A stretch of 63,247 bases of DNA, filler included, from Licmophora abbreviata (Eukaryota), in NCBI GenBank assembly GCA_900291995.1. It is 10 parts of 10 records of this genome, joined end to end, with 100 filler letters (N's around TTAATTAATTAA, not from the genome) between each part and the next. Parts side by side here need not be neighbours in the genome. Positions count along the whole stretch, not along the records: positions 1 to 14,253 come from OLMU01004217.1; 9 more parts are not named here. One strand, written 5' to 3'. Numbering within the stretch: position 1 is the first letter of the stretch; each line of letters starts with the position of its first letter. The position numbers and the translations under genes were made by a program. Below the pieces are notes generated by a model that saw only the letters and a program-made list of their open reading frames with translations, made no database searches and was not told the DNA's origin. Of this stretch, positions 1 through 15,118 are shown in pieces.

Positions 1-210
1 TGCCATCATCAGTCGTGCTTCATCACCCACACGGGAGCGGACGAAAACGAAGAGACAGACAGACGGACCAAGGTGCGTCATTCTGATTGGTTCCGGCGTC
101 CGATTGCGCAGAAGGTCCAGCACAAAAGGCGCGCAGGCGCGCATGTCCAATCCAAGCAGCAGCAGGCGAGGGTTGAAGGTGAGTTCTGTTCCTGCGTGTC
201 TTTGTTGCCA

Positions 211-228
211 ACACACACACACACACAC
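211..228. repeat. (AC)n microsatellite
   Basis: acacacacacacacacac. Confidence 0.9.
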
Positions 229-455
229 AAGTCGTTCGCGTTCCGCCTGGCAATCGTCGACATCATCACCCTCGTCGTCGTCGCAGCCACGACTGTTTGC
301 AGTGTTGCTGTTGTGTGTGGACTGAAAGAAGCACAGTGTCGTCTTCTATCACCTCTCCTCTCTGTACTTTCAGAGCTCTAGAGAGTTTCGTGTTTGTACT
401 TCACGGTATCGTACGACATACGTGCTGACAAAACTGCAAGGTTGAAGAAGGCAGA

Positions 456-2433
456 ATGAGATTTTCACAATGGACGCTCTTGCTCTTGGCAAGCGGCTGT
501 CATCTGCAGTCTCTCTCATTACTCCTCTCATCATCATCTTCGTCACTGCTCGTGTCTGGCTTTGCACGACCTTCTTCTTCTTCTTCTCGACAAAAAGGCA
601 GACTGCTCAGTGCATCCTCGTCGGCACGCGCCATGAGCTCCACTGCGGCACCGCCTTCACTCTCAGAGACCTTGCCTGAAAAGGGAGAAGACGGCATTTA
701 TCACATTCTCAACAAGGAACAGCATCGTCTCTTCTTGGAAGCCAACCCGGACAAGATGGTCGTCATGAAGTTCTTTGCTCCGTACGTACTGCCAGCATTA
801 CTCGTATAGATATCATACGAGAACTGCTGTGTCATGCTTACTCATCTCTCTCTCTCTCTCTATCTCTCTACATTACAGTTGGTGCCGCGCTTGCAAGGGC
901 CTCGAACCCAAATTCTTAAAGATTGTCCACGACCCAGCCTACGAACACTTGCCCTTTGTCTTTTGCGACTTTAGCGTCGCTCACAATCGAGACTTTGTAA
1001 AGTCCCTCGGCGTCCTCGCCCTCCCCAACATTCATATCTACGCGGGTGCCGCCGGCCTGGTGGAGAGCTTTCCCTGTGGACCCTCCAAGGTGCCCATTCT
1101 CAAAAGTAAACTCGTGCAGCTCATCAATGATCGAGTCGATCCCGACACACGATTGTTGATTCAAAATAATGATGCAAAGGCGGAAGAGACGGAGCCCTGT
1201 GCGGAACGCCCGGTCTTGGATTCCACGGGGGTGGTGGAAGAAACGCAGTTGACGGTGGGAGGTGTGCTTGTCAGTCAGGAACTCATGGACTACATGCGAC
1301 ACGATGTTCCCTTCTTCAAAGACTTGAGAGAAGACGAGTTCAAGGGACTCATGCAAAAGGCAAAACTACTCTCCTTTGATCCAGGCAGTGTCATTATGAG
1401 ACAGGGTCGGCCGGGAAGATTGTTTTATGTTATGGAAATGGGTGAAGTCGAAATTTGTGTACAAGCAGCCTTTGAAGATCCCCTCACGACACCTCCGAGC
1501 TACCTTGGAACGGTCATTAACCGCATGGGCAAGAAGAATTACTTTGGAGAACGGGCCTTGATCACCGGAGAACCGCGGGCAGCTAGTATTCGCTCTTCGG
1601 GCAAGACAAGGGCTTTTGCCTTTGACATTGATGATATCCCGTCATCGTCGATTTTGTCTGGAACCAAGCAGGTGACGGATGAGTACATGCAAAAACTGAA
1701 TGATCGCTATGATTATGATTTTTACAACATTGACATGATCAGTGATCAGTTCAAGGCAGCCAACATTGGAAATCAAGTGCGTGGGTCCGTCAACAGGCCC
1801 CAAAAGATTGTAGGAGTCGATGTAGAGCCGGAAGAGAGCTTTATGGAAATTTCAGAAAAGGACAAGGAGATCATCTTGCCGTTGCTATTGCGGTTTCGAA
1901 TGGTGCGCCATGCCGCACGCTGTTTCAATTACATCGTCAGCACTCATCCCCTCCTTGGTGATCCCGGCGAGATTCGGCGGCGAAGCATGTTGGTTTCCAA
2001 GCTAACGGAAGCGCAAAAGGAGGAATTCCGGGATCTCTTTCACTTGATTGACCGCGATGGAAATGGCCGCATTGAGTTGTTGGAGCTAAAGCGCGTCATG
2101 GAAAGCGTTGGCGAAGTCAAAACGGACGAGGAACTCTTGCAAATGATCAACAAAGGAAATGTTGCGCTGGACGGAAACCAAGAAATCCTGTTTGTCGACT
2201 TTATGGGTATCATGGCAGAGGCGGAGTTCTACGAGCTGTTCAAGGACACCTTTAGCGCTCTGGATACGCACAACTCAGGTTTTGTCAGAGCAGCCGAGTT
2301 GGACCGAGTACTCTGCGGTATGAGAGATTTGATCAGTGATGACCGAAAGAGCATAATCGATGTGGAGGAAGACAACGACATGCTGATTGACTATGAACAG
2401 TTTTCCAAGATGCTCTTGGGGACACACGTGTAG
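456..2433 (+). CDS. Thioredoxin (WCRAC) + cyclic-nucleotide-binding domain + EF-hand fusion protein with a probable bipartite plastid-targeting N-terminus; exons 456-781 and 879-2433
   Basis: GT-AG intron 782-878 joins VMKFFAP to WCRACK. CNB phosphate-binding cassette YFGERALITGEPRAASI. EF-hand loops DRDGNGRIELLE and DTHNSGFVRAAE. Hydrophobic N-terminus followed by VSG-FARP and a Ser/Arg-rich stretch. Confidence 0.85.
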
Positions 2434-2582
2434 TAATAGAAGTTGCGAGAAAAGATATGGAACGACTTCCATTCGTATGATATCTAGGTCTGTTCGTACC
2501 GGTATTGCTCCTTTTTCAGCTTATAACGAAGATAGGTATGAAAGTATGGTATCGGCTACTACTAGACTGTTTTAGAGCGCCG

Positions 2583-3839
2583 TCACCGCAAGCTACCATA
2601 GTCAATGGCGGCAGGAAAGGCTCGGAGTAGATCATAGACAACCGTGAGTTGCAAGAGGTCATCCTGTTCCCTGGCCTCGTTCAGAAGCGTCTGCTGCGAC
2701 GAACTTGCTAAAAATCTATACATGCCACCAATCGTCTGACATGCCCGTCGCTTGGCATGAGCATGGGCGACCGCTGGATCGTGTGGGATGGCCGCCAAGG
2801 CAAACGAACTCAGACCAGGCCATGACGTTCCATCATCATCATCATCATCACCACTTGCTCCATACAAGGCCGCAGGATATGCATCCATCAAGGTCTGAAT
2901 TGTGGCTTGGGAAGTATTCCCGCTCGCCAGGGCCACATTCAAGGGCAAACGTCCGTTGCAATTGGTGCGCCGAGCGGCATGGGGGTACGCATCCAGCAGC
3001 GCTCGGAGGATCGGAGGACATGGATGCTCATCTTCGTAGACAATGTTGGTCGTGAAGGCCGCTCTTGCCGCGACATGCAAGGGGAGATTTCCGTCTTGGT
3101 CTACAGTGTCGAGTTGATCGGGAAAGAGGGAGACTGCAAGTCTTGCAATGATCGGTGGACATCCCACCAGTGCCAAGGCGTGCAAGACTCGAAAAGATTT
3201 TCGAGGAGGATGGCTGTCTTGGAGTATTGTAGTGGAAGGAGACATGTTTGCATCGATAGTGTCAAGAGTCGCAGCTGCCATGAGGATCTTCTCCATGTCG
3301 AACCAAAGTGCGGCTACCGTTTCCACTGCACTAGAAAGAGGGGAATCGTCATGATGAAGTTCGTTCTTGAGTGATGACATAGAGTATGAGACACGCCTCT
3401 CGTGCAAGTCTTCGAGTCGATCTCGGATGACGACACGCAACGACTGGTGCTCACGTAGTTGGGTCATGCATGTTTCCATCGCATCCTGGACACGCTGCGC
3501 AGTCTCCTTGACTTCCAATGATTGCCATGGAAATGGATTGAGGTGTCGTCGGAACCAAAGATCAATGCACGAGTGTCCTACATCGGTTCTCATATGGACA
3601 AGGTCATGTGGACAATCCGCCTGCGACGACAAGAGCCGGAGCCATTCGTGGGTGCTGCGGTGACTGGCGCCAAAATGCAGAGCCGTCCAGCCGACGGCGT
3701 TGGGGTGCCAGAGAATCCCTGGATTCTTTGAGACTAAGGAGAGTGCTCTCTCCAAGCTTTCCTTGCCACGGATGGTGGCGTGGAGCTCTCCCATCGTCTG
3801 TCGTGGCAACAAGGCATCCGTATGATGTGTCTGAGCCAT
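2583..3839 (-). CDS. Ankyrin-repeat protein
   Basis: 418-aa ORF with ankyrin-like units GWTALHFGA, GNLPLHVAA and GRLPLNVAL. Confidence 0.75.
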   Translation of the reverse strand: MAQTHHTDALLPRQTMGELHATIRGKESLERALSLVSKNPGILWHPNAVGWTALHFGASHRSTHEWLRLLSSQADCPHDLVHMRTDVGHSCIDLWFRRHLNPFPWQSLEVKETAQRVQDAMETCMTQLREHQSLRVVIRDRLEDLHERRVSYSMSSLKNELHHDDSPLSSAVETVAALWFDMEKILMAAATLDTIDANMSPSTTILQDSHPPRKSFRVLHALALVGCPPIIARLAVSLFPDQLDTVDQDGNLPLHVAARAAFTTNIVYEDEHPCPPILRALLDAYPHAARRTNCNGRLPLNVALASGNTSQATIQTLMDAYPAALYGASGDDDDDDGTSWPGLSSFALAAIPHDPAVAHAHAKRRACQTIGGMYRFLASSSQQTLLNEAREQDDLLQLTVVYDLLRAFPAAIDYGSLR

Positions 3840-4177
3840 TTTGTGTCAGTGGTACGAAACTGAACTTGGGCGGATCTGGATCTGGTTTTCTTCAACAACA
3901 ACAAAAACTGGGTTTTCTCTAGCCTCTTTTGTAAGAGGTATACATTGATCTGGGCTTCCGCTCCTTGGACCTTTGCGTTCGCTCAGTGTGTTTGTCACTG
4001 TTCTTCTTTATGTTCGATGAGATCCCATCGTATGATACCTGTACCGGGGTACTTCTGTACGTCCGTCGACCGTTATCGCGCGCCAAAAGAAGTCTGTCAT
4101 TGTCCACACCATGGCGCTACTGTTACACCTTTTATTATCATACTCGCGTCGAAGAGAACAGCTGCATCTCTTTCAAA

Positions 4178-5062
4178 ATGACAGCTCTTAGTGGCGGTGT
4201 CAGCAACAAGACTGTTTGCAAAGGATGCGGAGTGGAGTTTCCTTCGAGAAATGCCGTCTTTCGCCACTTGAACGAGACCGACGCCGCGTGTCTCTCTCCC
4301 ACGGACCTGCAGGACTTTTCCGAACACTTGCGTCAATCCGCGAAACCAAAGACCAAAGCAGAACGCTTGCTTCCAGTTCTAGAGATTCCACTGACTGTTC
4401 ACTTTGAAGATAACCACATCGCTGTCGTCTACAAGCCCGCAGGCATCTCCGTGTCGGGCTGGGAACCCTGCAATCGCAAAAGAACCCTCGACATGGCCTT
4501 GCCTTACAATCTAAAGCCGTCCAGCGATCCCGACGCCCTTCCGCAGCCCCGCCCCGTGCATCGTCTCGATAAGCCCACGCAGGGTCTCCTGCTCGTTGCC
4601 AAGACATTTCAAGCTCGCGTGCGGCTCAGCGATGCCTTTGCGCAGAACCAGATTCAGAAGCGATATCAAGCCATCGTCTTGGGATGCCCGTCGGAACAAC
4701 AGGGCAACCTCTCCCAGCCGATCTCCGACAAGGCTGCGTCCACGGACTATACGAGAATTCGAACTGTTTCGTCGCTTCGTTCCGGTCAACTCACTCTCAT
4801 CGACCTCCGCCCTCAAACTGGCCGAAAGCATCAGCTACGGATACACTGTGCGGCGATGGGACATGCAATACACGGTGACAAGCAGTATGGGCCAGAAGGA
4901 AAGACAATTCTTCACAAGGGCCTCTTCCTGGCTGCTCTGGGGCTATGCTTTCGGCATCCACTGACTCGGGAAGAGATTGTTATCCAACTGGACGCACCGT
5001 ACAAATTTCAGGCCGTGTTGGAACGAGAGCAGCGGCTGCACGATGAATGGGGCGGTTCTTGA
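4178..5062 (+). CDS. RluA-family RNA pseudouridine synthase with an N-terminal C2H2-like zinc finger
   Basis: Motifs YKPAG, HRLD (catalytic Asp), TGRKHQLRIH and GDKQYG. N-terminal CKGC...FPSRNAVFRHL. First ATG at 4178. Confidence 0.9.
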   Translation: MTALSGGVSNKTVCKGCGVEFPSRNAVFRHLNETDAACLSPTDLQDFSEHLRQSAKPKTKAERLLPVLEIPLTVHFEDNHIAVVYKPAGISVSGWEPCNRKRTLDMALPYNLKPSSDPDALPQPRPVHRLDKPTQGLLLVAKTFQARVRLSDAFAQNQIQKRYQAIVLGCPSEQQGNLSQPISDKAASTDYTRIRTVSSLRSGQLTLIDLRPQTGRKHQLRIHCAAMGHAIHGDKQYGPEGKTILHKGLFLAALGLCFRHPLTREEIVIQLDAPYKFQAVLEREQRLHDEWGGS

Positions 5063-5155
5063 CATATCTTCCTATTTCTTACAAAGCTACGAATTCTCAA
5101 GTCCATCGGTCATAATCTCTTTGTGAGCTTGTGCGAGTCATCGTGGCTTTCATCC

Positions 5156-6805
5156 TCACTCTTCATCTGGGTTCCCTTCTGGAAACACACCGTACACCTC
5201 GGAAGGCTCCGGCTCCTCGATCGCCCACAGATCCTCCTGAAGCTTGGCGAACTTCTCCCGTCTCTCCTCTGGGATTTCCTCCTGCACATTGAGAGTTCGC
5301 AGATAATCGAAAGGATCACGACTGAGATCGTACCGCTGCTCGGAAGTGGCATACATATCCTCAAACGGTTGGTTCAAGTCATAGTCGAACGCGCTGTTCC
5401 ACCAGCCGTTGAAGGTCAGTCTCTTTTCCATGGCATGTGGTGAGACTTTCGTCACGAAGTGCAGCGTGTCGGGCTGCACGACAAAGAGAGACAGGGTGTT
5501 GAAGGATGCATGCTGGTAAGCATTGTAGGTGAGCTCGGGCGCCCAGTAGAGACCGCCGCCCCATTCTGGACGCCAGTTGTGGCTCAGGTGCCACACGAAT
5601 GCCACCGTCCTTTCGTCTTTGAAGTCCGTGTGTGGCATGGAGTAGTCTCCCGGCATGTAGTAGCTAGGTGATCCAGTGATTTCTCCGCGACAGTCGCGCT
5701 TTGTCAAATTCGAAATGAATTGCTTGGATTCGGGGCAGTCAAACATATCGTAGGCATCGTTCATCATGTCGCTGTAATCTTCCTTTTCGTACACATTGTG
5801 ATGGTTATAGGTAAATCCATCGTCGCTGTACACCTGATGCAGCCGCCAGTTCTTGGTCTGGGATAGATCATAGTGCATGGCTTCAGCAAACTCAGGGATG
5901 AAGGCATCACGGATCACCACAACTTCGCCCTTTCGCAGCCTCCGTCCGATCTCCTGAAAGGTCTCAGGGTCTTCCATCAGTTTGGGATTAAGATATTCCT
6001 GGAAGGGCACACCCGGTTCGAGCTTGAAGGATGGCACGTCCTGGGGCTCAAATCTTCGCAACAGATCTCCAGTGACATCTTCCAGGACTTGACCATCATC
6101 GCGACTGACATAAACATCAAAAGTGCCATCCTTGTGTACGCTGTTGATTCTGGCCGGGTAAAAGTAATCTTCGGAAGAATACTCGAGCAACTCGTGTTGC
6201 TCTGGAAGGTCGTAAGGACGAATGTTCCGTAATGGAACCTGCTCGTTTGTCTTATCCAAGGCGTACTCGATCCAAAAGCTCTTTCCTTCCTCCTCCACTG
6301 CCTTGACGGTTGCCTTGTACCAATAGCTGTCTTCCGGGTCCTCCGTGTCGTCAACATGAACTTGGTGCAAAACTTCCACAATGGAGCCAACCTCGAGGTA
6401 GGGCACCTCTTCGGGAGCGTTATAAATTCCATCGTTGTTGTTGGGGCAGGTGGGACGCTCTTGTAGGGCAGAATTGGTTCCTTGAAAGAGTCGAATGAGA
6501 GGTTCGTGTACGTAGGTCTTGTGGACTGTCTGCATCCAGGTGGAAGAGACGTAGGGTCCCAGGAGAAGAGTCCATGGGATGAGCATTAAAAGTGCAACAA
6601 TCCACCGTGACCCCAAGGAGAGACCCTTGCCGTTTCGTTCGTGCTTGGAGATAGAGTCGTCGTCCTCGTCGAGTCTGATGAGTGCCGAAGGAGAGTTCGG
6701 ATTGGTGTCCATGTCTACTTTTTCTTTGGAGCTTATTATAGTGTCCCGTCGTTGCTCGTCCTCCAAAGCAGGGTTCTGTGTAGTTTCTTCCGTGTCCGTG
6801 GACAT
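5156..6805 (-). CDS. Single-TM protein with two Tudor/Agenet-like segments and a C-terminal 2OG-Fe(II) dioxygenase domain (prolyl-hydroxylase-like)
   Basis: HTD...H iron triad (YSMPHTD, TLHFV), RPEWGGGL and KRLTFNGW. TM segment WIVALLMLIPWTLLLG. Tudor-like LEVGSIVEV...YWYKATVKAV and YFYPARINSVHKDGTFDV. Confidence 0.8.
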   Translation of the reverse strand: MSTDTEETTQNPALEDEQRRDTIISSKEKVDMDTNPNSPSALIRLDEDDDSISKHERNGKGLSLGSRWIVALLMLIPWTLLLGPYVSSTWMQTVHKTYVHEPLIRLFQGTNSALQERPTCPNNNDGIYNAPEEVPYLEVGSIVEVLHQVHVDDTEDPEDSYWYKATVKAVEEEGKSFWIEYALDKTNEQVPLRNIRPYDLPEQHELLEYSSEDYFYPARINSVHKDGTFDVYVSRDDGQVLEDVTGDLLRRFEPQDVPSFKLEPGVPFQEYLNPKLMEDPETFQEIGRRLRKGEVVVIRDAFIPEFAEAMHYDLSQTKNWRLHQVYSDDGFTYNHHNVYEKEDYSDMMNDAYDMFDCPESKQFISNLTKRDCRGEITGSPSYYMPGDYSMPHTDFKDERTVAFVWHLSHNWRPEWGGGLYWAPELTYNAYQHASFNTLSLFVVQPDTLHFVTKVSPHAMEKRLTFNGWWNSAFDYDLNQPFEDMYATSEQRYDLSRDPFDYLRTLNVQEEIPEERREKFAKLQEDLWAIEEPEPSEVYGVFPEGNPDEE

Positions 6806-7166
6806 GCTGGTGACTGTTGCAGACTCTCTTTCTCTCTCCAATACAAACGATCAATAGTGAACACTCGCTCCTTGTGACCTTGTGTGCTTGCTTGTGTGAA
6901 CCATGCGAGCGCCGCAATCTTGTAGACGCTTTTACAAGTTGTTTTCTGTTTTTTGAAGTTTTGGGCAGGGGCAATAATCGACTGACTCGACTCATTCGAC
7001 TTGATGGACTGACATCGAGTTCGAAAAAAGTTGGATCAAAAAAAGCGAAACAGACAACAGAAAACAGACCTCTCTCTCAAGGATGGTGTCAGATACATCA
7101 GTTTCAAGTTGTTGTTATTCTGTACCACCAATCTTCTGAACAACAAATAGAAGAGGAAGAAGAACA

Positions 7167-9524
7167 ATGAGCAGCAGCAGTTCACGTCACCACACAAAAA
7201 CAAGTTCAAACGGACGTCCGTCGTACAAGCGACTTGAGAGTGGGACCTTTCACAGCCAGGGCGAATTGCCTCGCCTTCCGATTCCTACGCTCGATGAGAC
7301 GCTCGACAAGCTCTGCAAAGTCCTCCATGCACTGCAGGACTCTCACCAACGGGAGGAAACGAAGCGGATCATTGAAGACTTTCGGGATGGCGATGGAGCC
7401 AAACTACAGGATCTCCTGGAGCAGTACGACGAGCAAGGTAGCAAAGATGCTTCGCTCGGAAGTTACGTCGAGCACTTCTGGAACGAGTCCTACTTGGCGC
7501 CAGATCAGAGCGTTGTTCTCAACTTGAACCCATTCTTCGTTTTGGAGGACGGACCTGATCCCAAGGTTAGCAAGGATCCCGTTCTAAGAGCTGCGTCGCT
7601 TTGCTTCGCCAGTGTCAAGTACGCTTCCCTCCTTCGTCGCGAAATGCTCGAGCCCGACATTTTCAAGGGCAAACCGCTCTGCATGGATCAGTTCTTGAGC
7701 CTTTTTGGCAGCTGTCGCATTCCGGAAAAGGGATCTGCGGATGCCGTGGCTGTATATCCGGATTCTTCCCATGTTTGTGTCATGAGTCGGTCGCAGCTGT
7801 ACTACTTTCAAGTCCTCTGGCCCGACGGTAGTGTAGCGGTAGATGTCAATGACATTGCCGATATTCTACATGCCATCCTCAGAAATTCCAAGCACACGGC
7901 CCTCGAAGAGGCGGGAAAGCACTGTTTGGGTGTGCTCACGAGCTTGCCGCGACAGGAATGGGCAACAGCCCGGGATGATATGATTGTGTCGTCCAAACGA
8001 AATGACGAGTGCCTCCAGATTATCGACTCCAGTCTATTCATGCTTGTGCTAGACGACTATGTGCCGGAAGATGTCAAAGAAACGGCGGCCAACATGTTGC
8101 ACGGAACATACAAGCTGCAGAAAGGAAGTGATGGCGTCGACTACCAGGTCGGAACTTCTTGCAACCGTTGGTATGACAAACTTCAAATTATCGTCTGCGG
8201 CGACGGTTCGGCGGGTATAAACTTTGAGCACAGCGCCATTGACGGTCATACGGCTCTCCGGTTCGTATCAGATATCTTTGCCGAGACGGTGGTTAACTTT
8301 GCCCAGTCAATTACCAGAAGCATTGGACAAGACATCCCGCACGTGGTACATGCCAAAGTGCAACGTGCGGCTCTTGTTTTGAATGAACAAGGTTTTCCTC
8401 GCCTCGACGTCTTTCCCAAGAAACTCATTATGGACATCCCTACGAGTGTCAAGGAGCGAATCTACTACGCCGAAACCGCGCTCGGGGATCAGATTGTTTC
8501 CAGTGACACACGCGTTCTGGAGTTTAGAGGATATGGGAAAGCGCTTATCGTTGCGAACAAGATGAGGTGAGTGAAGGGGAAAGAATGTTTTGCGTGTCGT
8601 CGTTGGAGCTAGATGTGGAACTTACGACCGTTTCTTTTCTGATGCTTTAGCCCCGACTCTTTTGCACAAATGAGTATGATGCTGGCGTACTTTCGCCTCT
8701 ACGGAAAGATTGTTTGCATGTACGAGCCTGTGCTGACGAAGCAGTTCTATCACGGAAGAACGGAGGCAATGAGAACTGCGACTCCAGAGGCCACCGAGTT
8801 TTGCAAAGTGTTCTGCAGTAGGTTTTCCTCGCCAGAAGACAAGCTGGTGAGTCTCAGGAAAGCGACAGAAGAACACTCGCGTCTCGTCAAGGAGTCGGCC
8901 ATGGGAAAAGGAGTGGACCGCCACCTTTTTGCGTTGCAATGCATTGCTAAAAGGCATGGAATGGAGACACCCGAGTTCTTTCGGTCCAAACCCTGGGAGA
9001 TGCTGAATCACACAGTCCTATCAACTTCAAATTGTGGAAATCCATCGCTTCGACTCTTTGGCTTTGGTCCCGTTGTGCCTGATGGGTTTGGCATAGGCTA
9101 TATCATCAAAAACCATGGCTTCCATTTCAGTGTGTCGTCGAAGCATCGTCAAACGCGGCGCTACGTTCACACTCTCGAGACAACACTCATGGAACTGAAG
9201 GAGCTTTTCCACCCCATCGCTAGTGTCGAAGTAGAAGAAGTGGCACGAAAGACTCTTATGGGCCTCGAAGAGCCTCCAAGTCCTATTGCGAACGAATACG
9301 GAGGGATGTTTGGGAATGACAACCACTCGTTCGATGTTGTCAACGCGCCTGCGCTGCCAGTAAACATGCAAGGCTCAAGTTCGTCACAGTCCAAGTATTT
9401 AGCTCCGACGATCAAACGAAGCTCGTTACACCAGAAGATGCGTGACATTGGGATCCCTGTTGATTTGAAAACATCGATCGAGCCCGAAGGAGAGCCCCAC
9501 ACCAGGCTCTCAACAGCATCGTAA
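7167..9524 (+). CDS. Carnitine/choline O-acyltransferase; exons 7167-8566 and 8651-9524
   Basis: LPRLPIPTLDETL, NRWYDKLQ, catalytic EHSAIDG, SPDSFAQM (formed across the GT-AG intron 8567-8650), FYHGRTEAMR, GKGVDRHL, LSTSN and GFGPVVPDGFGIGY. Confidence 0.93.
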
Positions 9525-9611
9525 GGAGGCAGCTTGATAACTGTGAATATCACGATTGACTTTTAATAAAATACGAAGTACTATATTTTTTCCATAACGA
9601 GACGGATAAAT

Positions 9612-10052
9612 CTATGCGGATTGAACTGGCCTTTCTTCTCCCTTGTTCGAAACCTTTTCGGGGGCTGCGATGCGTCGTTCTTCGAGCATGATGGCTCCGA
9701 TTTGTTCTAGCGCAGCAGCTCGCTTTCGAGTAAGACGGACTTTTTTACGTTCCATGAGCAAACGGTATTGCGTCTGTTGATCTAAAACCCAGTCCGCCAA
9801 AGCTGAGTCGTCCTCTCCCTTGACATTACAATGTCCATGCTCTTCCTTGTAGCGAAGCAGATCGTCGAAATGGCGCTGCCACTTGTCCCCCTGATGGCCC
9901 AACACTTTTTTCGTTTGTTTCTTCGCCTCTAGTACAGATCGAAAAGAGCACGAGCCTGGACTTCTTAGTAGAAATGCTCGGACATTTGTTGTGGCATGGA
10001 GCCAACAAACTAGCGTGATGAAGCACAACAGAAGACGTCGTTCCCCCACCAT
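9612..10052 (-). CDS. Small helicase-associated (HA) domain protein with a signal peptide (possibly plastid-targeted)
   Basis: KWQRHFDDLLRYKEEHGHCNV...LADWV..Q..QY...LT..R...LEQIG fits the HA domain pattern. N-terminus LLLCFITLVCWLHA...VRA-FLL. Confidence 0.8.
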   Translation of the reverse strand: MVGERRLLLCFITLVCWLHATTNVRAFLLRSPGSCSFRSVLEAKKQTKKVLGHQGDKWQRHFDDLLRYKEEHGHCNVKGEDDSALADWVLDQQTQYRLLMERKKVRLTRKRAAALEQIGAIMLEERRIAAPEKVSNKGEERPVQSA

Positions 10053-10356
10053 GATGATATCGACAGCACAATAAGGGCGCGAAAATGGAAATGTCAATCT
10101 AATTTTGAAGGGCGCACCGCGCCTCAACATCGTGACGCGGACAGACGGACAGAGTCGATGGATTTTTCATCTTTTCGAGCTCTTTTTGGTCGTTTTTCTT
10201 TTGTTTTTGTTTTTTGTTTTTCACCATTCCCATGTATTTTTTCTGCATCAGAGTTTCATCCCTCTTCCCTCTGAGGGGTACCGGCTGCCATACAGATATC
10301 TCAGAGGTCAGGGAGTTGTGGGCTGCGGAGTGAAGAGACGGGGACTGAGCGATGTC

Positions 10357-12014
10357 ATGCCTGTTGATTTGGGACTCTTTCGTCCTATTGAGGAGAATGG
10401 AAACATCTGTCAGGTGAAAGGTTGGCAGAGATTAAGAAATGAGACGACCGGCGGCGAAGAGGCCGAAACCTGGGACCCTCTTCTGTCCTCAATACAAGCC
10501 TGGGAGACAGAGCGTCGTACAGCGCGGCAGCGACTTCATGAACAGTATCGGCTTCTCAATGAGTTCCAGCGAATGCTCTCCCCCAAGGTGTCTGAGTCGG
10601 ACGATGTTCGCGCGGACGCGAGATCGCGAATCGAGATACTTCGAAGAGACACTCTGCCCGAACTCGAGTCGATGGTCGACCATCTCACAGAAAATCTGGA
10701 AGAAGCCTTGCCACGGGTTGGAAATGAAGTAGACACCGACTTGTCAGTTGACTTTATTGAGGGAACAGCTGTTCCGTCGCCCCATTCTGCAGTTTTTGCC
10801 GGGCTTAATGTTATCATCGATCCTCTGCTTTCTCTTGGTGGCTACGAAAGGTTGGACGACGGCCATGCTACAATCTTGACAGGTCCGGGTGCTATTCTGT
10901 CTCGTTCCATGACAGAGGCAGCCCTACGAGTAGCTTGCCTCTCGGATGAGTACTCCCACTTGGTTGGATCTATTTCTGTGGACGCTTCTTTGATGCGCGC
11001 TCTACTGGGATGCCATTCCCCACCAGCTGGTGAGCGACCCAGCAACTGTCTCATCTGTGCCAGCGTGCCGCCGACGAACTCTGGGTCGACCAGATCCTTC
11101 TTGTTGGAGGCCCCGCCTGTTGTAGTACTGTCCAAACGACATCAAAACCTCACGTACTGGGATCGGCAGCTCCCACATGGATACTCTTGCACGACTCGTG
11201 GTGCTGGACACCTCGATGCGCGTGAGGGAGCGCGGCGACAGACCTTTCGAAGATGCAAGCGCCCGTGGTTTCAGGGGATACACGACAAAGTCGAGGTCTT
11301 TGCCTTGACGGGGAATACAATGGGTGAGTCACGGGAAGTTCAAGTTGAGCTGGCGAGAAAAATACGAATCTTTCATCAATCACTGCTTGTCAACAAGGAT
11401 GACCGCACGGTCCAACACTTTGTCCGCCTCAATAGGATTCCTCTATGCGAGTTGCTTCCCAGCGAAGCGAGTCGGATTCTTGTGGAAGGATATCTTCCAA
11501 GTCTGAAAGCCTACGTCACCTTGGGTTACGTTTCAAACTTCACTGATTTCATGTCGCGAGAGACCAAGACAAAGTGCGGTGAGGAGGGATTCGTTCACAC
11601 GGTACATGGTGTCATATGCAGTGTGCCGGAATCTATGGAGTGGATGTTACAGAATAGTATCGTGGATCAAGATGGAGAGGTGGGCATAGGAATTGCTCCC
11701 TGTATGGCAATGGAGTTCAAAGTTAAAAAGATAGCAGGCATGAAGAGATGGCTGTGTTCTTGCCATTGAGACGACGTGTACAACATGGCAAGGGCGGGAA
11801 GATCATTGTCAGGGAGCTTTGTGATTCAGTTACTCCTCGACCTCTCGATCATATTCGCAATGAGGGAGAACGAGCAGAGGCGATGTCGAACCTTTCCCAC
11901 GCTAGCAAAACAAAAGTCAAAGAGCCATTTGCATTGGCTGGACAACCTACGCCCTCGCAGATTTCAGGTGAGGCGCTAAGCTGCCCCTTCGACTTTCTGC
12001 CAATGTATCGCTAG
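10357..12014 (+). CDS. Degenerate seryl-tRNA synthetase-like protein; apparent frameshift near 11725 (ORF 10357-11769 continues in ORF 11748-12014)
   Basis: SerRS-like N-terminus MPVDLGLFR, coiled-coil arm, LPRVGNEV, RQLP, DKVEVF, EGYLPSLKAY...VSNFTDFMSR and VHTVHG. Motifs 2 and 3 are degenerate. Confidence 0.7.
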
Positions 12015-12052
12015 CTTCTGTGGTCGGCGGCGGACACTTTTGATTTTTAGCT

Positions 12053-13666
12053 TTAGGCAAACAAACTCTTAATGACCGACTGCACACTCAAAGGTTTCAA
12101 ATGATTGTACTTTTGTCCTGTTCCACAAAAGACAATCGGCGCCCCCGTGACGTGCGTCATGGTCAGCGCAGCGCCGACCTTGTCGCCAACCGTGTCGAAC
12201 TTTGTCAAGACAATACCATCAATCTGCCTCGAATGACCACCACTCCGGAACGCTTTGTTGAACATGTTCAACTGGTCGATACCATCATTGCCCACCAGGG
12301 CTTCGCACACAAACAGAACCAGATCACAGTCGTTCTCCACGAGTAGCTTCGACAGCGCCTTCATGAGAGGTACGTTGTTCTGCATTCTTCCGGCAGTGTC
12401 AATCATCACAACGTCATGCTTCTCTTCTGTTGCATGTACAATCGCAGCTTGAGCGACAGACGAGGGATCTTTTGCATAGCCCTTGTGGTAGAGGGGAACG
12501 TAGAGACACTTGGCATGAACGTTCAATTGCTCCACCGCTCCACTTCGAAAAGTATCGCAGGCTGCTACCATGGGATTGCAGCCGCTCGATTTTAAGTAGT
12601 ACGCAATCTTGGCTAGACTCGTACTCTTTCCCACACCGTTGATTCCAACCATGCAAATTACGTAGGGTCTCGCACTGCCCCTCGTCAAGAGCGTTCCATC
12701 CCTCTTGGTCACAACAGCCCTCAAGACATTGACTTCTCGGTGCTTGGGCGGTTGCAGAATCTTGGTAATGGCGGACTCGAGCGCCTGTCGGACAGCAGTC
12801 TTGACACGTGAGAAGGACTGCAGCCTCTTCCCGACTAGCTTGTTCTGGACGGTCGAACAGATCTCCTTGGCAATGTCATTGGCCACATTCTTGCTCGTGA
12901 GCAATTTCTGCATCTCCAACAAGGGGGCTTCTAGATCCTGGGCAGTCAAGACTTTGGTTCCTGCCATTTGATCCAATAATCCCTTGAGCGAGGATCCCCA
13001 AGAGCCATCGGAGCCTTCATCCGTATCATCCAGCCGATCTTCCTCTTGCCATGCGGGTATGTCGTCGGGAGAAGGCAAGTAGGCAGCTCGTGCTTCGGCC
13101 AAGGCCGAAGATCCTTCCAGCGCATCATTGTCTAGCAACCCTTCCGCACCCTGATCCTTTGAATAATCCAATTCGTTCATGGCCTCCTTGGTGACCTTGG
13201 CCTCGCCCCAGACACGCTTCTCTTTCCCCGCCCGCTTGCCCTTGGTCTGAGCAGACGATGCTGCAGTCGCGGTGTTGAGCTGCGCCAAGTTCTCCACGCT
13301 ATTTCTTGTTGAAAGCGCCTGCTTTCGCAAGACATGAAAGGTCTGATCAAATAGTTCGGCGTTGTCGGAAGCTTGTTGAAAGAGATCATACTCGTGCAGA
13401 ACAGAGCGTAGTAGATGGGCCAGCGTGCGGCCACGCGACACGACGTTGGGGTATACCGTGATAGCAATGGAGGTGCTGGACTCCTCCCATTCGATCATGT
13501 CTTTGTGGACGACGCATTGTTTGGATTTGGAAGCAGTAGGATCCAGGAGTGTTTGGGAAATGAAGGAGTTTATCTTTTGGGCGGTAGAGTGGGAATTCTC
13601 GTGGGGCGCAAGATACTGGTAGAGAATCAAGCCTCCTTTCGAAAAGATCGTCAGGCTATCTAGCAT
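12053..13666 (-). CDS. SRPRA: Signal recognition particle receptor alpha subunit
   Basis: N-terminal longin start MLDSLTIFSKGGLILY. GTPase motifs GINGVGKSTSLAK, DTFRSGAVEQL, DTAGR, TKFD and GTGQKY. Confidence 0.96.
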   Translation of the reverse strand: MLDSLTIFSKGGLILYQYLAPHENSHSTAQKINSFISQTLLDPTASKSKQCVVHKDMIEWEESSTSIAITVYPNVVSRGRTLAHLLRSVLHEYDLFQQASDNAELFDQTFHVLRKQALSTRNSVENLAQLNTATAASSAQTKGKRAGKEKRVWGEAKVTKEAMNELDYSKDQGAEGLLDNDALEGSSALAEARAAYLPSPDDIPAWQEEDRLDDTDEGSDGSWGSSLKGLLDQMAGTKVLTAQDLEAPLLEMQKLLTSKNVANDIAKEICSTVQNKLVGKRLQSFSRVKTAVRQALESAITKILQPPKHREVNVLRAVVTKRDGTLLTRGSARPYVICMVGINGVGKSTSLAKIAYYLKSSGCNPMVAACDTFRSGAVEQLNVHAKCLYVPLYHKGYAKDPSSVAQAAIVHATEEKHDVVMIDTAGRMQNNVPLMKALSKLLVENDCDLVLFVCEALVGNDGIDQLNMFNKAFRSGGHSRQIDGIVLTKFDTVGDKVGAALTMTHVTGAPIVFCGTGQKYNHLKPLSVQSVIKSLFA

Positions 13667-14067
13667 TTTTAGTCTCGAGGAAGCAAAGAGGATTGGCGTG
13701 GTAATCAATGGAGGAGCGGTGCAGCTGGGAGGTCCTCAAGGGCGGTCGTAGTCTATGTGGCTGCTAAGTTCGACATCTTTTGTGTTGTGTGTGTTCACGA
13801 CTTCTCCGTACGAGTACCAGCAAGTACCCCGATGGTCGTTTTGCCAATTTTGAATGTTGTCGATTGTCAGAGCTTTTCATGAAAGTCGTCTGTGCCTCGC
13901 ACGATAGCTCGTGTTTACGCGTAGAATGTACGCACGACTCAGTACAGGTACTTGAGGTCGAGTGTGTCGTCCGGATTCCAAAAAGACTTGCGATCGAGAG
14001 AGAAAAAAGACCGCAGTCTCTCTGCACAGCCGTTGTGAGCGTCGTCGCCCTCTTTGCCCTGTAAAGC

Positions 14068-15118
14068 ATGAAGATTGTAGGAATTGCTGTTGTGAGAACG
14101 GGTCCGGACCTTCCGGAACCTATCCCCTTGAGTATGGCGTGTGATTTGTCCAGCTTTGGCTTCTTCCAAAGACAGGTGAGCTTCCATTTGTGTGCCACGT
14201 AGGAAGTACGCAACCTCAGTACTGGAGCAAGTTCGGCAACGAGAATGTTGCCANNNNNNNNNNNNNNNNNNNNNNNNNNNNNNNNNNNNNNNNNNNNTTA
14301 ATTAATTAANNNNNNNNNNNNNNNNNNNNNNNNNNNNNNNNNNNNNNNNNNNNACCTCAGTACTGGAGCAAGTTCGGCAACGAGAATGTTGCCACGACGG
14401 CAGTTTCAAGTTGCTTTTTCTCATCGACGGGAGCTGAAACGTGCAGCATCGTGCAGATCAGATAGATAGGAAGGGTAGAGGGGACTGCTTCGTGTTGTCT
14501 GATCTTCGGTGGCTCTTGAGAATGAGCCAAGCACGCCGCCTCCTCTTGACAATGCGACTTGACTCCCACTTTTATCTCTCACCACCCTGTTTTGCCAATC
14601 GTCGCTCTTGCCAATCCACACAGTCCGTGAAAGAAATGCTCATGTTCCTCACCAAAACATTCTCCAAACGAACACTTCCGGGACAGCGACAATCGGTCAC
14701 ACACGAGGGATACGTGGTTCATTGCTATACTCGCTCCGACGGACTTGGAGGCACTGTCACGACTGATCTCGAATATCCCGCACGAGTTGCCTTTGTATTG
14801 CTGGGACAGCTGCTGGAGGACTTCACGGCCACAGTCGGTGAGACCTGGAAGGATGTTACGACTCCAGAGAGCGTGGCCTTTCCTCAGCTGGAAGAGTACC
14901 TGCAGAAGTATCAGGACCCCGCAGCCGCTGATAAGGTTACCAAGATCCAGAAGGACTTGGATGATACCACTCAGATCTTACACAAAACCATTGACAGTGT
15001 CCTGGAACGAGGAGTCAAGCTGGACAACCTGGTGGAACGTTCTGATGACTTGTCGCGGCAGTCCAAAATGTTTTACAAGCAGGCCAAGAAGACAAATAGT
15101 TGCTGTGTCATTTCCTGA
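14068..15118 (+). CDS. YKT6: Longin R-SNARE YKT6; exons 14068-14175 and 14624-15118 (the intron spans an assembly gap)
   Basis: Exon 1 encodes MKIVGIAV...DLSSFGFFQRQ. Exon 2 has YPARVAF, the SNARE motif VLERGVKLDNLVERS and C-terminal CCVIS (prenylation CAAX). Confidence 0.95.
14254..14353. other. Artificial contig linker N44-TTAATTAATTAA-N44 (also at 26466-26565, 34879-34978, 38604-38703, 47211-47310, 55809-55908, 57342-57441, 58513-58612 and 60681-60780)
   Basis: An identical 100-bp spacer with stop codons in all six frames appears at every gap. Confidence 0.97.

Follow-up and report, generated by a model that had tools for sequence, protein, structure and literature searches.

A diatom gene joining thioredoxin, cyclic-nucleotide-binding and EF-hand domains: a candidate plastid sensor-responder in Licmophora abbreviata

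The stretch of DNA considered here (the window) comprises 63,247 nucleotides, filler included, from the Licmophora abbreviata assembly GCA_900291995.1; the gene in question lies near its beginning, at positions 456-2433 of the plus strand, in the part (1-14,253) that comes from record OLMU01004217.1. It is a single nuclear gene of the diatom, with two exons and one intron, and its product joins a thioredoxin (Trx) domain, atypical in its active site WCRAC, to one cyclic-nucleotide-binding (CNB) domain and a calmodulin-like module of four EF-hands, behind an N-terminus of bipartite plastid type. The reading offered for it, a little short of an even bet, is that the gene is functional and specifies a plastid sensor-responder: a thiol-disulfide oxidoreductase gated by Ca2+ and cyclic nucleotide.

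Gene structure and splicing

Exon 1 (456-781) specifies residues 1-108 and supplies the first two bases of the codon for Pro109; it holds the start codon, the presequence and, of the Trx domain, the N-terminal third. The 97-nucleotide intron (782-878) interrupts that codon in phase 2; it opens with GTACGT and closes, after a CT-rich tract, with ACAG. Exon 2 (879-2433) specifies the rest of the Trx domain, the CNB domain, linker helices, the EF-hand module and the stop codon, TAG, at 2431-2433. The ATG at 456 is the first one 3' of an in-frame TGA (426-428), and has an A at -3. The list of open reading frames (ORFs) divides the gene into 456-809 and, in a different frame, 775-2433, because the unspliced reading ends at an in-frame TAG within the intron (807-809). 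Excising 782-878 brings CC (780-781) together with T (879) to make the Pro109 codon, and generates a coding sequence of 1881 nucleotides for a protein of 626 amino acids.

The first-pass annotation of this DNA had proposed just this splice, as the one that restores a gene split in the ORF list and creates the sequence FAPWCRAC. The proposal stands up well. Enumerating all GT-AG pairs with the donor at 700-869 and the acceptor up to position 999 yields 15 that keep the frame open. Scored with a hidden Markov model built from 53 full-length homologs (the Licmophora sequence excluded), the 782/878 pair comes out on top at 915.9 bits; the runner-up pair scores 889.7 and the unspliced exon-2 ORF by itself 848.0. 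The sequence KFFAPWCRACK is produced by 782/878 and by none of the other open pairs, all of which score lower and destroy either the CxxC or the strand that precedes it. Homologs with the unbroken motif are often transcriptome ORFs (MMETSP, EukProt), so that the unbroken motif is encoded by the mature mRNAs of relatives. The removal of 782-878 as an intron is confirmed at the level of prediction, by homology and by canonical splice signals.

(A technical note on the sequencing reads: those that map to the region assemble into two contigs, at 876-1022 and 1255-1444, both from one of three runs of a single study; they contain no joints, and that the run is RNA is a guess. The best of the three runs contains 0.14 of the region's words, and the other two gave no contigs. 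The contig at the junction is silent on splicing because it is cut at a masked repeat. The intron's polypyrimidine stretch is formed by the (CT)n-rich tract at 845-868; in the read mapping 835-874 was masked as a repeat.)

The family and the parts of its proteins

A homolog search in which 8000 candidates were scored returned 604 at E <=0.001. Homolog counts given below refer to the best 120 of these, which are 51-78% identical to the query over 94-100% of its length; residue conservation refers to an alignment of 64 rows. The named sources among the best 120 are Thalassiosira, Cyclotella, Cyclostephanos, Skeletonema, Chaetoceros, Eucampia and Extubocellulus. Many family homologs are MMETSP or EukProt transcript ORFs, so the family is expressed; their database labels are automatic, and read "calmodulin" or "EF-hand / CRP-like cAMP-binding / thiol-disulfide isomerase". 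(One EukProt record, P0061, is labelled as coming from the dinoflagellate Alexandrium tamarense and has the sequence of a Thalassiosirales-like member (KAVEPKY..., LMVIKFYAPWCRACK); it is probably diatom contamination and not a dinoflagellate homolog.)

A wider scan, of 1.84 billion representatives, found 8569 at E <=0.001 and 87 at <=1e-30. Ten divergent representatives were examined, among them five named clusters: an MMETSP transcript, Corethron hystrix, Pelagophyceae sp. CCMP2097, Aureococcus anophagefferens and Octactis speculum. All three domain types score above their Pfam cut-offs in seven of nine distant proteins; the other two (479 and 461 amino acids, on contigs of 1792 and 1650 nucleotides) have the Trx and cyclic-nucleotide-binding domains only, and may be incomplete. 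In alignment, the Corethron, pelagophyte and dictyochophyte members share the active-site sequence F[FWY]APWCRAC[KR], the cassette sequence FGE[RH]...PR, the long basic helix and the first EF-hand (EF1). Since the same architecture is found in pelagophytes and a dictyochophyte, the fusion is older than their split from diatoms. On sequence evidence this is a conserved ochrophyte family (diatoms, pelagophytes, a dictyochophyte) rather than a diatom-only one, and its retention in Corethron, Pelagophyceae sp. CCMP2097, Aureococcus and Octactis points to long purifying selection on architecture and motifs. A protein-atlas search gave low scores (0.79 and 0.78) to Bacillariophyta clusters with CNB and EF-hand domains, which can be taken as a lead only.

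The Trx domain (693-1134; residues about 80-194 of the spliced product) is interrupted by the intron, and Pfam accordingly sees it in part on exon 2; exon 1 alone has no Pfam match at all, and the domain is found in full in homologs, in AlphaFold2 (AF2) models and in structural comparisons by VIA. The relevant Pfam cut-offs, in bits, are 23.5 for Thioredoxin (PF00085), 27.5 for cNMP_binding (PF00027), 25 for EF-hand_6 and 30 for EF-hand_7. Three full-length homologs pass the Thioredoxin profile at 53.1, 40.9 and 49.3 bits, alongside cNMP_binding and EF-hand families, and all nine distant members score 38-60 bits against it. The active site WCRAC (880-894) is the rule in the family: 106 of the 120 homologs have it, eight have WCKAC and two WCRSC; [FY]AP-WC..C is unbroken in 116, and the remaining four begin downstream of the motif (N-truncated). 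Also invariant is the cis-Pro loop (A47-L48-P49, numbered on the exon-2 product). The AF2 model of a homolog, P0011, which is 60% identical to the Licmophora protein, contains a complete Trx fold with a predicted local distance difference test score (pLDDT) of 84-94 over the domain; matching fold elements are present in the model of the Licmophora exon-2 product. With poplar Trx h4 the P0011 model aligns over 109 residues (Z 17.1; root-mean-square deviation (rmsd) 1.4), rows no more than one Z unit apart counting as ties in VIA.

By sequence, the top PDB matches of the P0011 Trx segment are a-domains of the protein disulfide isomerase (PDI) family (TXNDC5 at 4.1e-16, yeast PDI at 1.2e-15), each summed over several domains; single PDI-family stretches reach at most 34 bits, and the high PDI score comes partly from this summing. 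Human Trx reaches about 42 bits in this comparison, spinach Trx f about 38. The atypical Trx of the first-pass annotation thus holds: a Trx-fold domain with the active site WCRAC is confirmed from sequence and models, and a role as disulfide oxidoreductase is predicted for it.

An additional cysteine follows strand beta-5 of the Trx domain in the sequence FPCGP (1069-1083), whose F64, C66 and P68 are invariant. FPCGP also occurs in pelagophyte and dictyochophyte members, with FTCGP in Octactis and a gap in the Aureococcus model. Such conserved cysteines outside WCRAC could have a regulatory or resolving role. Further invariant or near-invariant cysteines of the 64-row alignment, C107 (EPC.ER), C245 (TRCF), C348 (ARCF) and C479 (VLCG), are diatom-specific.

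The CNB domain has its Pfam core at 1372-1635, with flanking helices that extend it to about 1276-1779. The exon-2 product matches cNMP_binding at 42.3 bits, well clear of the cut-off; a PDB sequence search finds apicomplexan cGMP-dependent protein kinase (PKG) at 4.2e-19 and the RI-alpha regulatory subunit of cAMP-dependent protein kinase (PKA) at 1.2e-14. Foldseek returns the CNB domains of PKA RI-alpha, PKG and HCN at probability 1.00, including 3pna_A, which is PKA RI-alpha with cAMP (TMt 0.75, rmsd 2.8), and 5l0n (TMt 0.79). It is the most confidently modelled domain of P0011, with pLDDT 93-97. The phosphate-binding cassette, FGERALITGEPRAAS (1543-1587), is intact, as the first-pass annotation had it: F222, G223, E224 and R225 are invariant, P232, R233, A234, A235 and S236 are conserved at >=90%, and 108 of the 120 homologs match the cassette pattern. 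One CNB domain with an intact phosphate-binding cassette is therefore confirmed by profile, alignment and model, and nucleotide binding is predicted. The beta-barrel also carries a 14-residue insertion, AAFEDPLTTPPSYL (1465-1506), for which every PKG alignment has a gap; among diatoms its conservation is high, with D200, P201, Y208 and G210 invariant, and pelagophytes have different, longer loops in its place.

The calmodulin-like module (2008-2415) is identified by Pfam (EF-hand_6 at 42.9 bits and EF-hand_7 at 42.1 for the exon-2 product), by PDB sequence matches, the best of which are calmodulins (E 1.7e-22, in two stretches), and by four helix-loop-helix units in the AF2 models of both the Licmophora exon-2 product and P0011. 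Measured against the 12-residue canonical Ca2+ loop, D-x-[DNS]-x-[DNS]-G-x-[ILV]-x-x-x-[ED], the EF1 loop DRDGNGRIELLE (2050-2085) is the sole fully canonical one: position 1 is D in all 64 rows, position 12 is E in 62 and D in two, G stands at position 6 in 51, and I or V at position 8 in all 64. Position 1 of EF2 varies across the family and is Ala in Licmophora. EF3 keeps D at position 1 and G at position 6; position 3 is variable, with His in Licmophora (D-T-H-N-S-G..E), and position 12 is D in 25 rows, K in 22 and E in 12, with Glu in Licmophora. EF4 is degenerate, with Gln or Thr at position 12. What the first-pass annotation called a calmodulin-like EF-hand module is one in fold and in its number of EF-hands, with a single canonical loop. 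EF1 can be counted as a certain Ca2+ site by its sequence, and EF3 is perhaps a second in Licmophora abbreviata.

Ahead of this module runs a long basic amphipathic helix, LPLLLRFRMVRHAARCFNYIV... / LLLRFRMVRHAARCF... (1855-1944; AF2 helix 326-355 of the exon-2 product), followed by P.WGD..E..RR directly before EF1; the arrangement is kept out to pelagophytes and dictyochophytes. It is reminiscent of calmodulin-target helices and of the junction helix that precedes the calmodulin-like domain in calcium-dependent protein kinases (CDPKs). The basic helix could be an intramolecular target for the calmodulin-like module.

The N-terminus starts with a signal-peptide-like segment, residues 1-35 (456-560), whose hydrophobic h-region is WTLLLLASG. 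An ASAFAP-like junction, VSG/FARP, with Phe36 at 561-563, leads into a transit-peptide-like stretch (561-680); residues 36-75 contain 15 Ser and Thr among 40, five Lys and Arg and two Asp and Glu, and are accordingly hydroxylated and net positive. An aromatic residue at +1 of the ASAFAP motif marks stromal import in diatoms. Targeting features were counted in the 58 of the 120 homologs whose first residue is Met and whose CxxC is preceded by at least 95 residues (106 in Licmophora). A hydrophobic N-terminus (mean Kyte-Doolittle value >=1.7) is present in 55 of them, the motif [AGSTCV]x[AGSC][FWY] with its aromatic at position 15-45 in 51, and both in 50; near-motifs (NSAFAP, FDAFAP) are seen in several of the eight misses. 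This motif is a loose one, found in 168 of 945 control windows taken from mature parts; a stricter pattern is matched by 21 of the 58. The usual junctions in homologs are AAAFAP, ATAFVP, ASAFVP, SSAFAP and ATAYVLP. The bipartite plastid-type N-terminus that the first-pass annotation had recognised by its G-FARP is borne out in its junction motif and transit-peptide-like stretch, and this is probably a presequence that directs the protein to the chloroplast, a location predicted from sequence.

An in-frame internal ATG (633-635) specifies Met60 (AMSSTAAPP) at the junction of presequence and mature protein. In 28 of 59 sequences, that of Licmophora included, an internal Met lies between -62 and -38 from the CxxC; the Thalassiosirales-type members are without it. 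Some database entries begin at this internal Met (MSTAAPPE..., MSLAPPPDE...). There is at most a weak hint here of an alternative start giving a non-plastid isoform; the entries may just be truncated gene models.

Models of the whole protein have middling scores: mean pLDDT 77.6 and predicted template-modelling score (pTM) 0.49 for the Licmophora exon-2 product (with the 64-row alignment), and 77.8 and 0.46 for full-length P0011, in which the Trx domain, the CNB domain, the long helix and the four helix-loop-helix units can all be seen. Because the pTM is low, the placement of the domains relative to one another is not confidently predicted. Complex prediction of the P0011 Trx domain with its CNB-linker-EF part, run without an alignment, returned no verdict, with scores of 0.12 and 0.06 where the mark was 0.34. 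A wide VIA search with a 620-residue model gave Trx or CNB matches in all of the 50 rows shown; EF-hand or multi-domain rows may lie below these.

Precedents, proposed mechanism and rivals

Has such a protein been met before? Among open-access papers and bioRxiv preprints no paper was found on an architecture of Trx, cyclic-nucleotide-binding and EF-hand domains in diatoms or algae, and WCRAC was found there in unrelated texts only. The first-pass annotation's statement that no characterised protein has this combination survives to that extent, but it did not mention calredoxin, a precedent for two of the three parts, and there are at least 120 homologs in databases. The architecture is thus already present in databases under automatic names, and the family is uncharacterised as far as the literature found goes.

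Calredoxin (CRX) of Chlamydomonas reinhardtii (PDB 5E37) is the closest protein that has been characterised. Ca2+ binding is reported to be crucial to its Trx activity and to its binding and reduction of PRX1, a 2-Cys peroxiredoxin (PMC4911631). It too combines a four-EF-hand calmodulin-like domain and a Trx in one polypeptide, and is located in the chloroplast, which is predicted only for the Licmophora protein. The Trx part of calredoxin (5e37_C) aligns with the P0011 model at Z 15.3 and rmsd 3.7 over 123 residues with 24% identity in VIA; the match is limited to this part, and a match of both domains was not found. The differences are substantial. The order of domains is reversed: Trx is N-terminal here and, to judge from the disulfide Cys241, C-terminal in calredoxin. 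In the present family Trx and EF module are separated by a CNB domain and a conserved linker of about 130 residues; the family has WCRAC and one canonical EF loop as against the four occupied sites reported for calredoxin. Calredoxin belongs to a green alga and the present family to ochrophytes. The fusion looks like one that arose independently of calredoxin and is not orthologous to it, and the protein may be thought of, by analogy with calredoxin, as a sensor-responder Trx to which a CNB domain has been added.

The active site has its own precedents. ACHT proteins, with WC(G/A)SC, and TrxL2, with WCRKC, are described as atypical plastid Trx that act as oxidation factors and switch enzymes off (PMC12661521). 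They share with the present domain the plastid Trx fold and a site other than WCGPC, and TrxL2 also has Arg at the first x; they differ in being single-domain proteins without sensor domains, and WCRAC is neither of their motifs. The best natural single-domain PDB sequence match of the P0011 Trx segment is 6lyw/6lyx (E 1.3e-13, 54.6 bits), and 6lyx is the second-best structural match of the P0011 model in VIA (Z 16.4, 31% identity); poplar Trx-like2.1 (5nyk; Z 14.9, 19% identity) stands no nearer to it than ordinary Trx do. (A point of nomenclature: 6lyw/6lyx have the title "oxidized ACHT1", although the molecule is called "Thioredoxin-like 2-1, chloroplastic", and are distinct from the WCRKC-type TrxL2.)

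The sensor domains can be compared in the same way. The CNB domain resembles those of PKA regulatory subunits, PKG, HCN and CNG channels in its beta-barrel and in a cassette with Gly-Glu and Arg; it differs in being single and not tandem, and in being joined to a Trx instead of a kinase, channel, guanine-nucleotide-exchange-factor or DNA-binding output. Where Plasmodium PKG has PRTAS or PRSAT at the aligned sites, the Licmophora protein has PRAAS, and the insertion AAFEDPLTTPPSYL is absent from PKG. The EF module shares with calmodulin and CDPKs the four helix-loop-helix units, and with the CDPK junction a basic helix ahead of the module; it differs in that EF2 and EF4 are without key ligands and EF3 is variable.

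The first-pass annotation had held a three-input sensor of redox, cAMP and Ca2+ to be plausible, and such a function is an inference. In the proposed mechanism the Trx domain would exchange disulfides with stromal targets; Ca2+ at EF1 and a cyclic nucleotide at the CNB domain would gate its activity, or its access to targets, allosterically, with the signal passing through the conserved inter-domain helices. Its targets might be 2-Cys peroxiredoxin or, alternatively, enzymes that are down-regulated by oxidation, both of which are plausible because the CxxC is without Pro and the domain resembles the ACHT-type atypical Trx. WCRAC is without the Pro of WCGPC and has its Arg in common with WCRKC, and a less reducing potential would therefore be plausible.

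The physiological setting is described in the literature on diatoms: stromal Ca2+ increases when the cells are under high light and oxidative stress (PMC11663583), and CO2 status is signalled by cAMP, Trx regulates two carbonic anhydrases of P. tricornutum, and few Trx targets are known in diatoms (PMC7378808). One might go further and suppose that cyclic-nucleotide signalling operates inside the ochrophyte secondary plastid with this protein as its receptor, so that stromal Ca2+, cyclic nucleotide and redox state are read out on photosynthetic, carbon-concentrating or peroxiredoxin targets in the form of disulfide changes. That larger proposal is doubtful. If it were true, the protein would extend the calredoxin principle to three inputs and would provide cAMP, the CO2 signal, with a direct post-translational path into the plastid. 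Diatoms and their relatives account for a large share of ocean carbon fixation, the post-translational sensing of CO2, light stress and redox state in their plastids is poorly known, and stromal Ca2+ transients in diatoms have been seen only recently (PMC11663583). With its conserved Trx site, nucleotide pocket and Ca2+ loop, the protein is a concrete and cheap candidate for the action of Ca2+ and cAMP on plastid thiol switching.

What weighs against a plastid oxidoreductase gated by Ca2+ and cyclic nucleotide? The function of the gene is predicted from sequence and models. A search for sequencing runs of Licmophora abbreviata found no RNA data, and support for the splice in this species is by homology. 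The exon-2 product matches the Pfam Thioredoxin profile partially, at 18.8 bits, under the cut-off, the protein having been scored as exon pieces; the score is weak because the intron cuts the domain. Three of the four EF loops (EF2, EF3 and EF4) deviate from the canonical pattern. The pTM values of 0.46-0.49 leave allosteric coupling without a confident inter-domain arrangement to work through. The Licmophora h-region, with a best 11-residue mean of 1.65, falls slightly below the threshold, and Phe36 comes late compared with most homologs (16-33). A plastid pool of cyclic nucleotide, or a plastid cyclase, is named in none of the papers cited, which also make no mention of this protein, and the diatom cAMP work cited deals with transcriptional responses to CO2 (PMC7378808). 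Finally, there is the matter of which nucleotide would bind. Ala after the Arg of the cassette is the cAMP-preferring type in comparisons of PKA with PKG, and the first-pass annotation had classified the Licmophora cassette on that general rule. The Ala is there (PRAA), but non-diatom members have A, M, V, W or S in its place; nucleotide selectivity is therefore not a conserved property of the family.

These last points bear on an unlikely alternative, a plastid Trx that is calredoxin-like in responding to Ca2+ only, whose CNB domain is no sensor of cAMP or cGMP in vivo and instead binds another ligand or serves a structural or dimerisation role. Calredoxin itself works with EF-hands and Trx alone (PMC4911631), and the action of cAMP in diatoms has been placed at nuclear promoters (PMC7378808). 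The family-specific 14-residue insertion, absent from PKG CNB domains, fits such a departure from cyclic-nucleotide sensing, as do the variability after the cassette Arg outside diatoms and the FGEH that Octactis has for FGER. The cassette argues otherwise: its Gly-Glu and Pro-Arg are invariant or conserved at >=90% in 64 sequences and kept in pelagophytes, and because they are so conserved a phosphate-ribose ligand is hard to do without; the CNB domain is also the part modelled with the highest confidence. Should the CNB domain prove inert, the protein would still be an independently arisen ochrophyte analogue of calredoxin.

The logic might also run in reverse, with the Trx-like domain as a redox input, a switch that uses WCRAC and the additional conserved cysteines, and, for output, the binding of a partner by the EF module and basic helix in dependence on Ca2+ and cyclic nucleotide, so that the protein would be a redox-conditioned adaptor or buffer. 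The additional conserved cysteines (FPCGP, EPC.ER, TRCF, ARCF, VLCG), the CxxC without the Pro of WCGPC, and the basic amphipathic helix adjoining a calmodulin-like module can all be accommodated by such a scheme, which is nevertheless distinctly unlikely: the full catalytic set of a Trx is kept (Trp-Cys-x-x-Cys, cis-Pro loop, complete fold), and the EPC and TRCF/ARCF cysteines do not recur outside diatoms.

The gated oxidoreductase might, again, be at work somewhere other than the stroma, if the protein, or an isoform starting at Met60, were located or dually located in the cytosol, the lumen of the endoplasmic reticulum (ER) or the periplastidial compartment. The weak h-region and late Phe36 of the Licmophora sequence, the internal Met at the junction in 28 of 59 sequences, and the ER PDI-family a-domains at the top of the PDB sequence matches of the Trx domain are consistent with this. 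It is improbable when set against the aromatic residue of an ASAFAP-like motif in 51 of 58 full-length homologs, the homolog C-termini inspected (...LLGTAL, ...LLGKPL, ...MMSTR), which have no KDEL-like end, the Thalassiosirales-type members that have no internal Met, and the part that domain sums play in the PDI scores. (An ER PDI-like identity was considered separately and rejected, on these C-termini and on N-termini with plastid-type motifs.)

That the locus is non-functional, a pseudogene or a gene whose intron is retained so that fragments only are made, is scarcely credible: the sole junction contig does keep intron bases 876-878, from a run only guessed to be RNA, but neither exon has an internal stop, canonical GT-AG ends and a pyrimidine tract mark the intron, and homologs (51-78% identity) align with the product along its whole length, its key residues being intact.

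Neighbouring genes

The window is gene-dense, with 50% GC, and the neighbours of the Trx-CNB-EF gene are ordinary and unrelated to it: an ankyrin-repeat protein, pseudouridine synthases, a 2OG-Fe(II) oxygenase, a carnitine acyltransferase, an SRP54-type GTPase, and others. About 230 nucleotides 5' of the start codon, at 211-228, is an (AC)9 microsatellite. The ankyrin-repeat protein, of 418 amino acids with Ank_2 and Ank_4 matches and a run of poly-Asp, is specified by the minus strand at 2583-3839, convergently with the Trx-CNB-EF gene; because the two stop codons are only about 150 nucleotides apart, the 3' untranslated regions must be short or overlapping. A choline/carnitine O-acyltransferase is spread over two plus-strand ORFs, 7167-8570 and 8670-9524, which cover positions 1-393 and 401-573 of the Pfam profile, and this split implies another short intron near 8570-8670.

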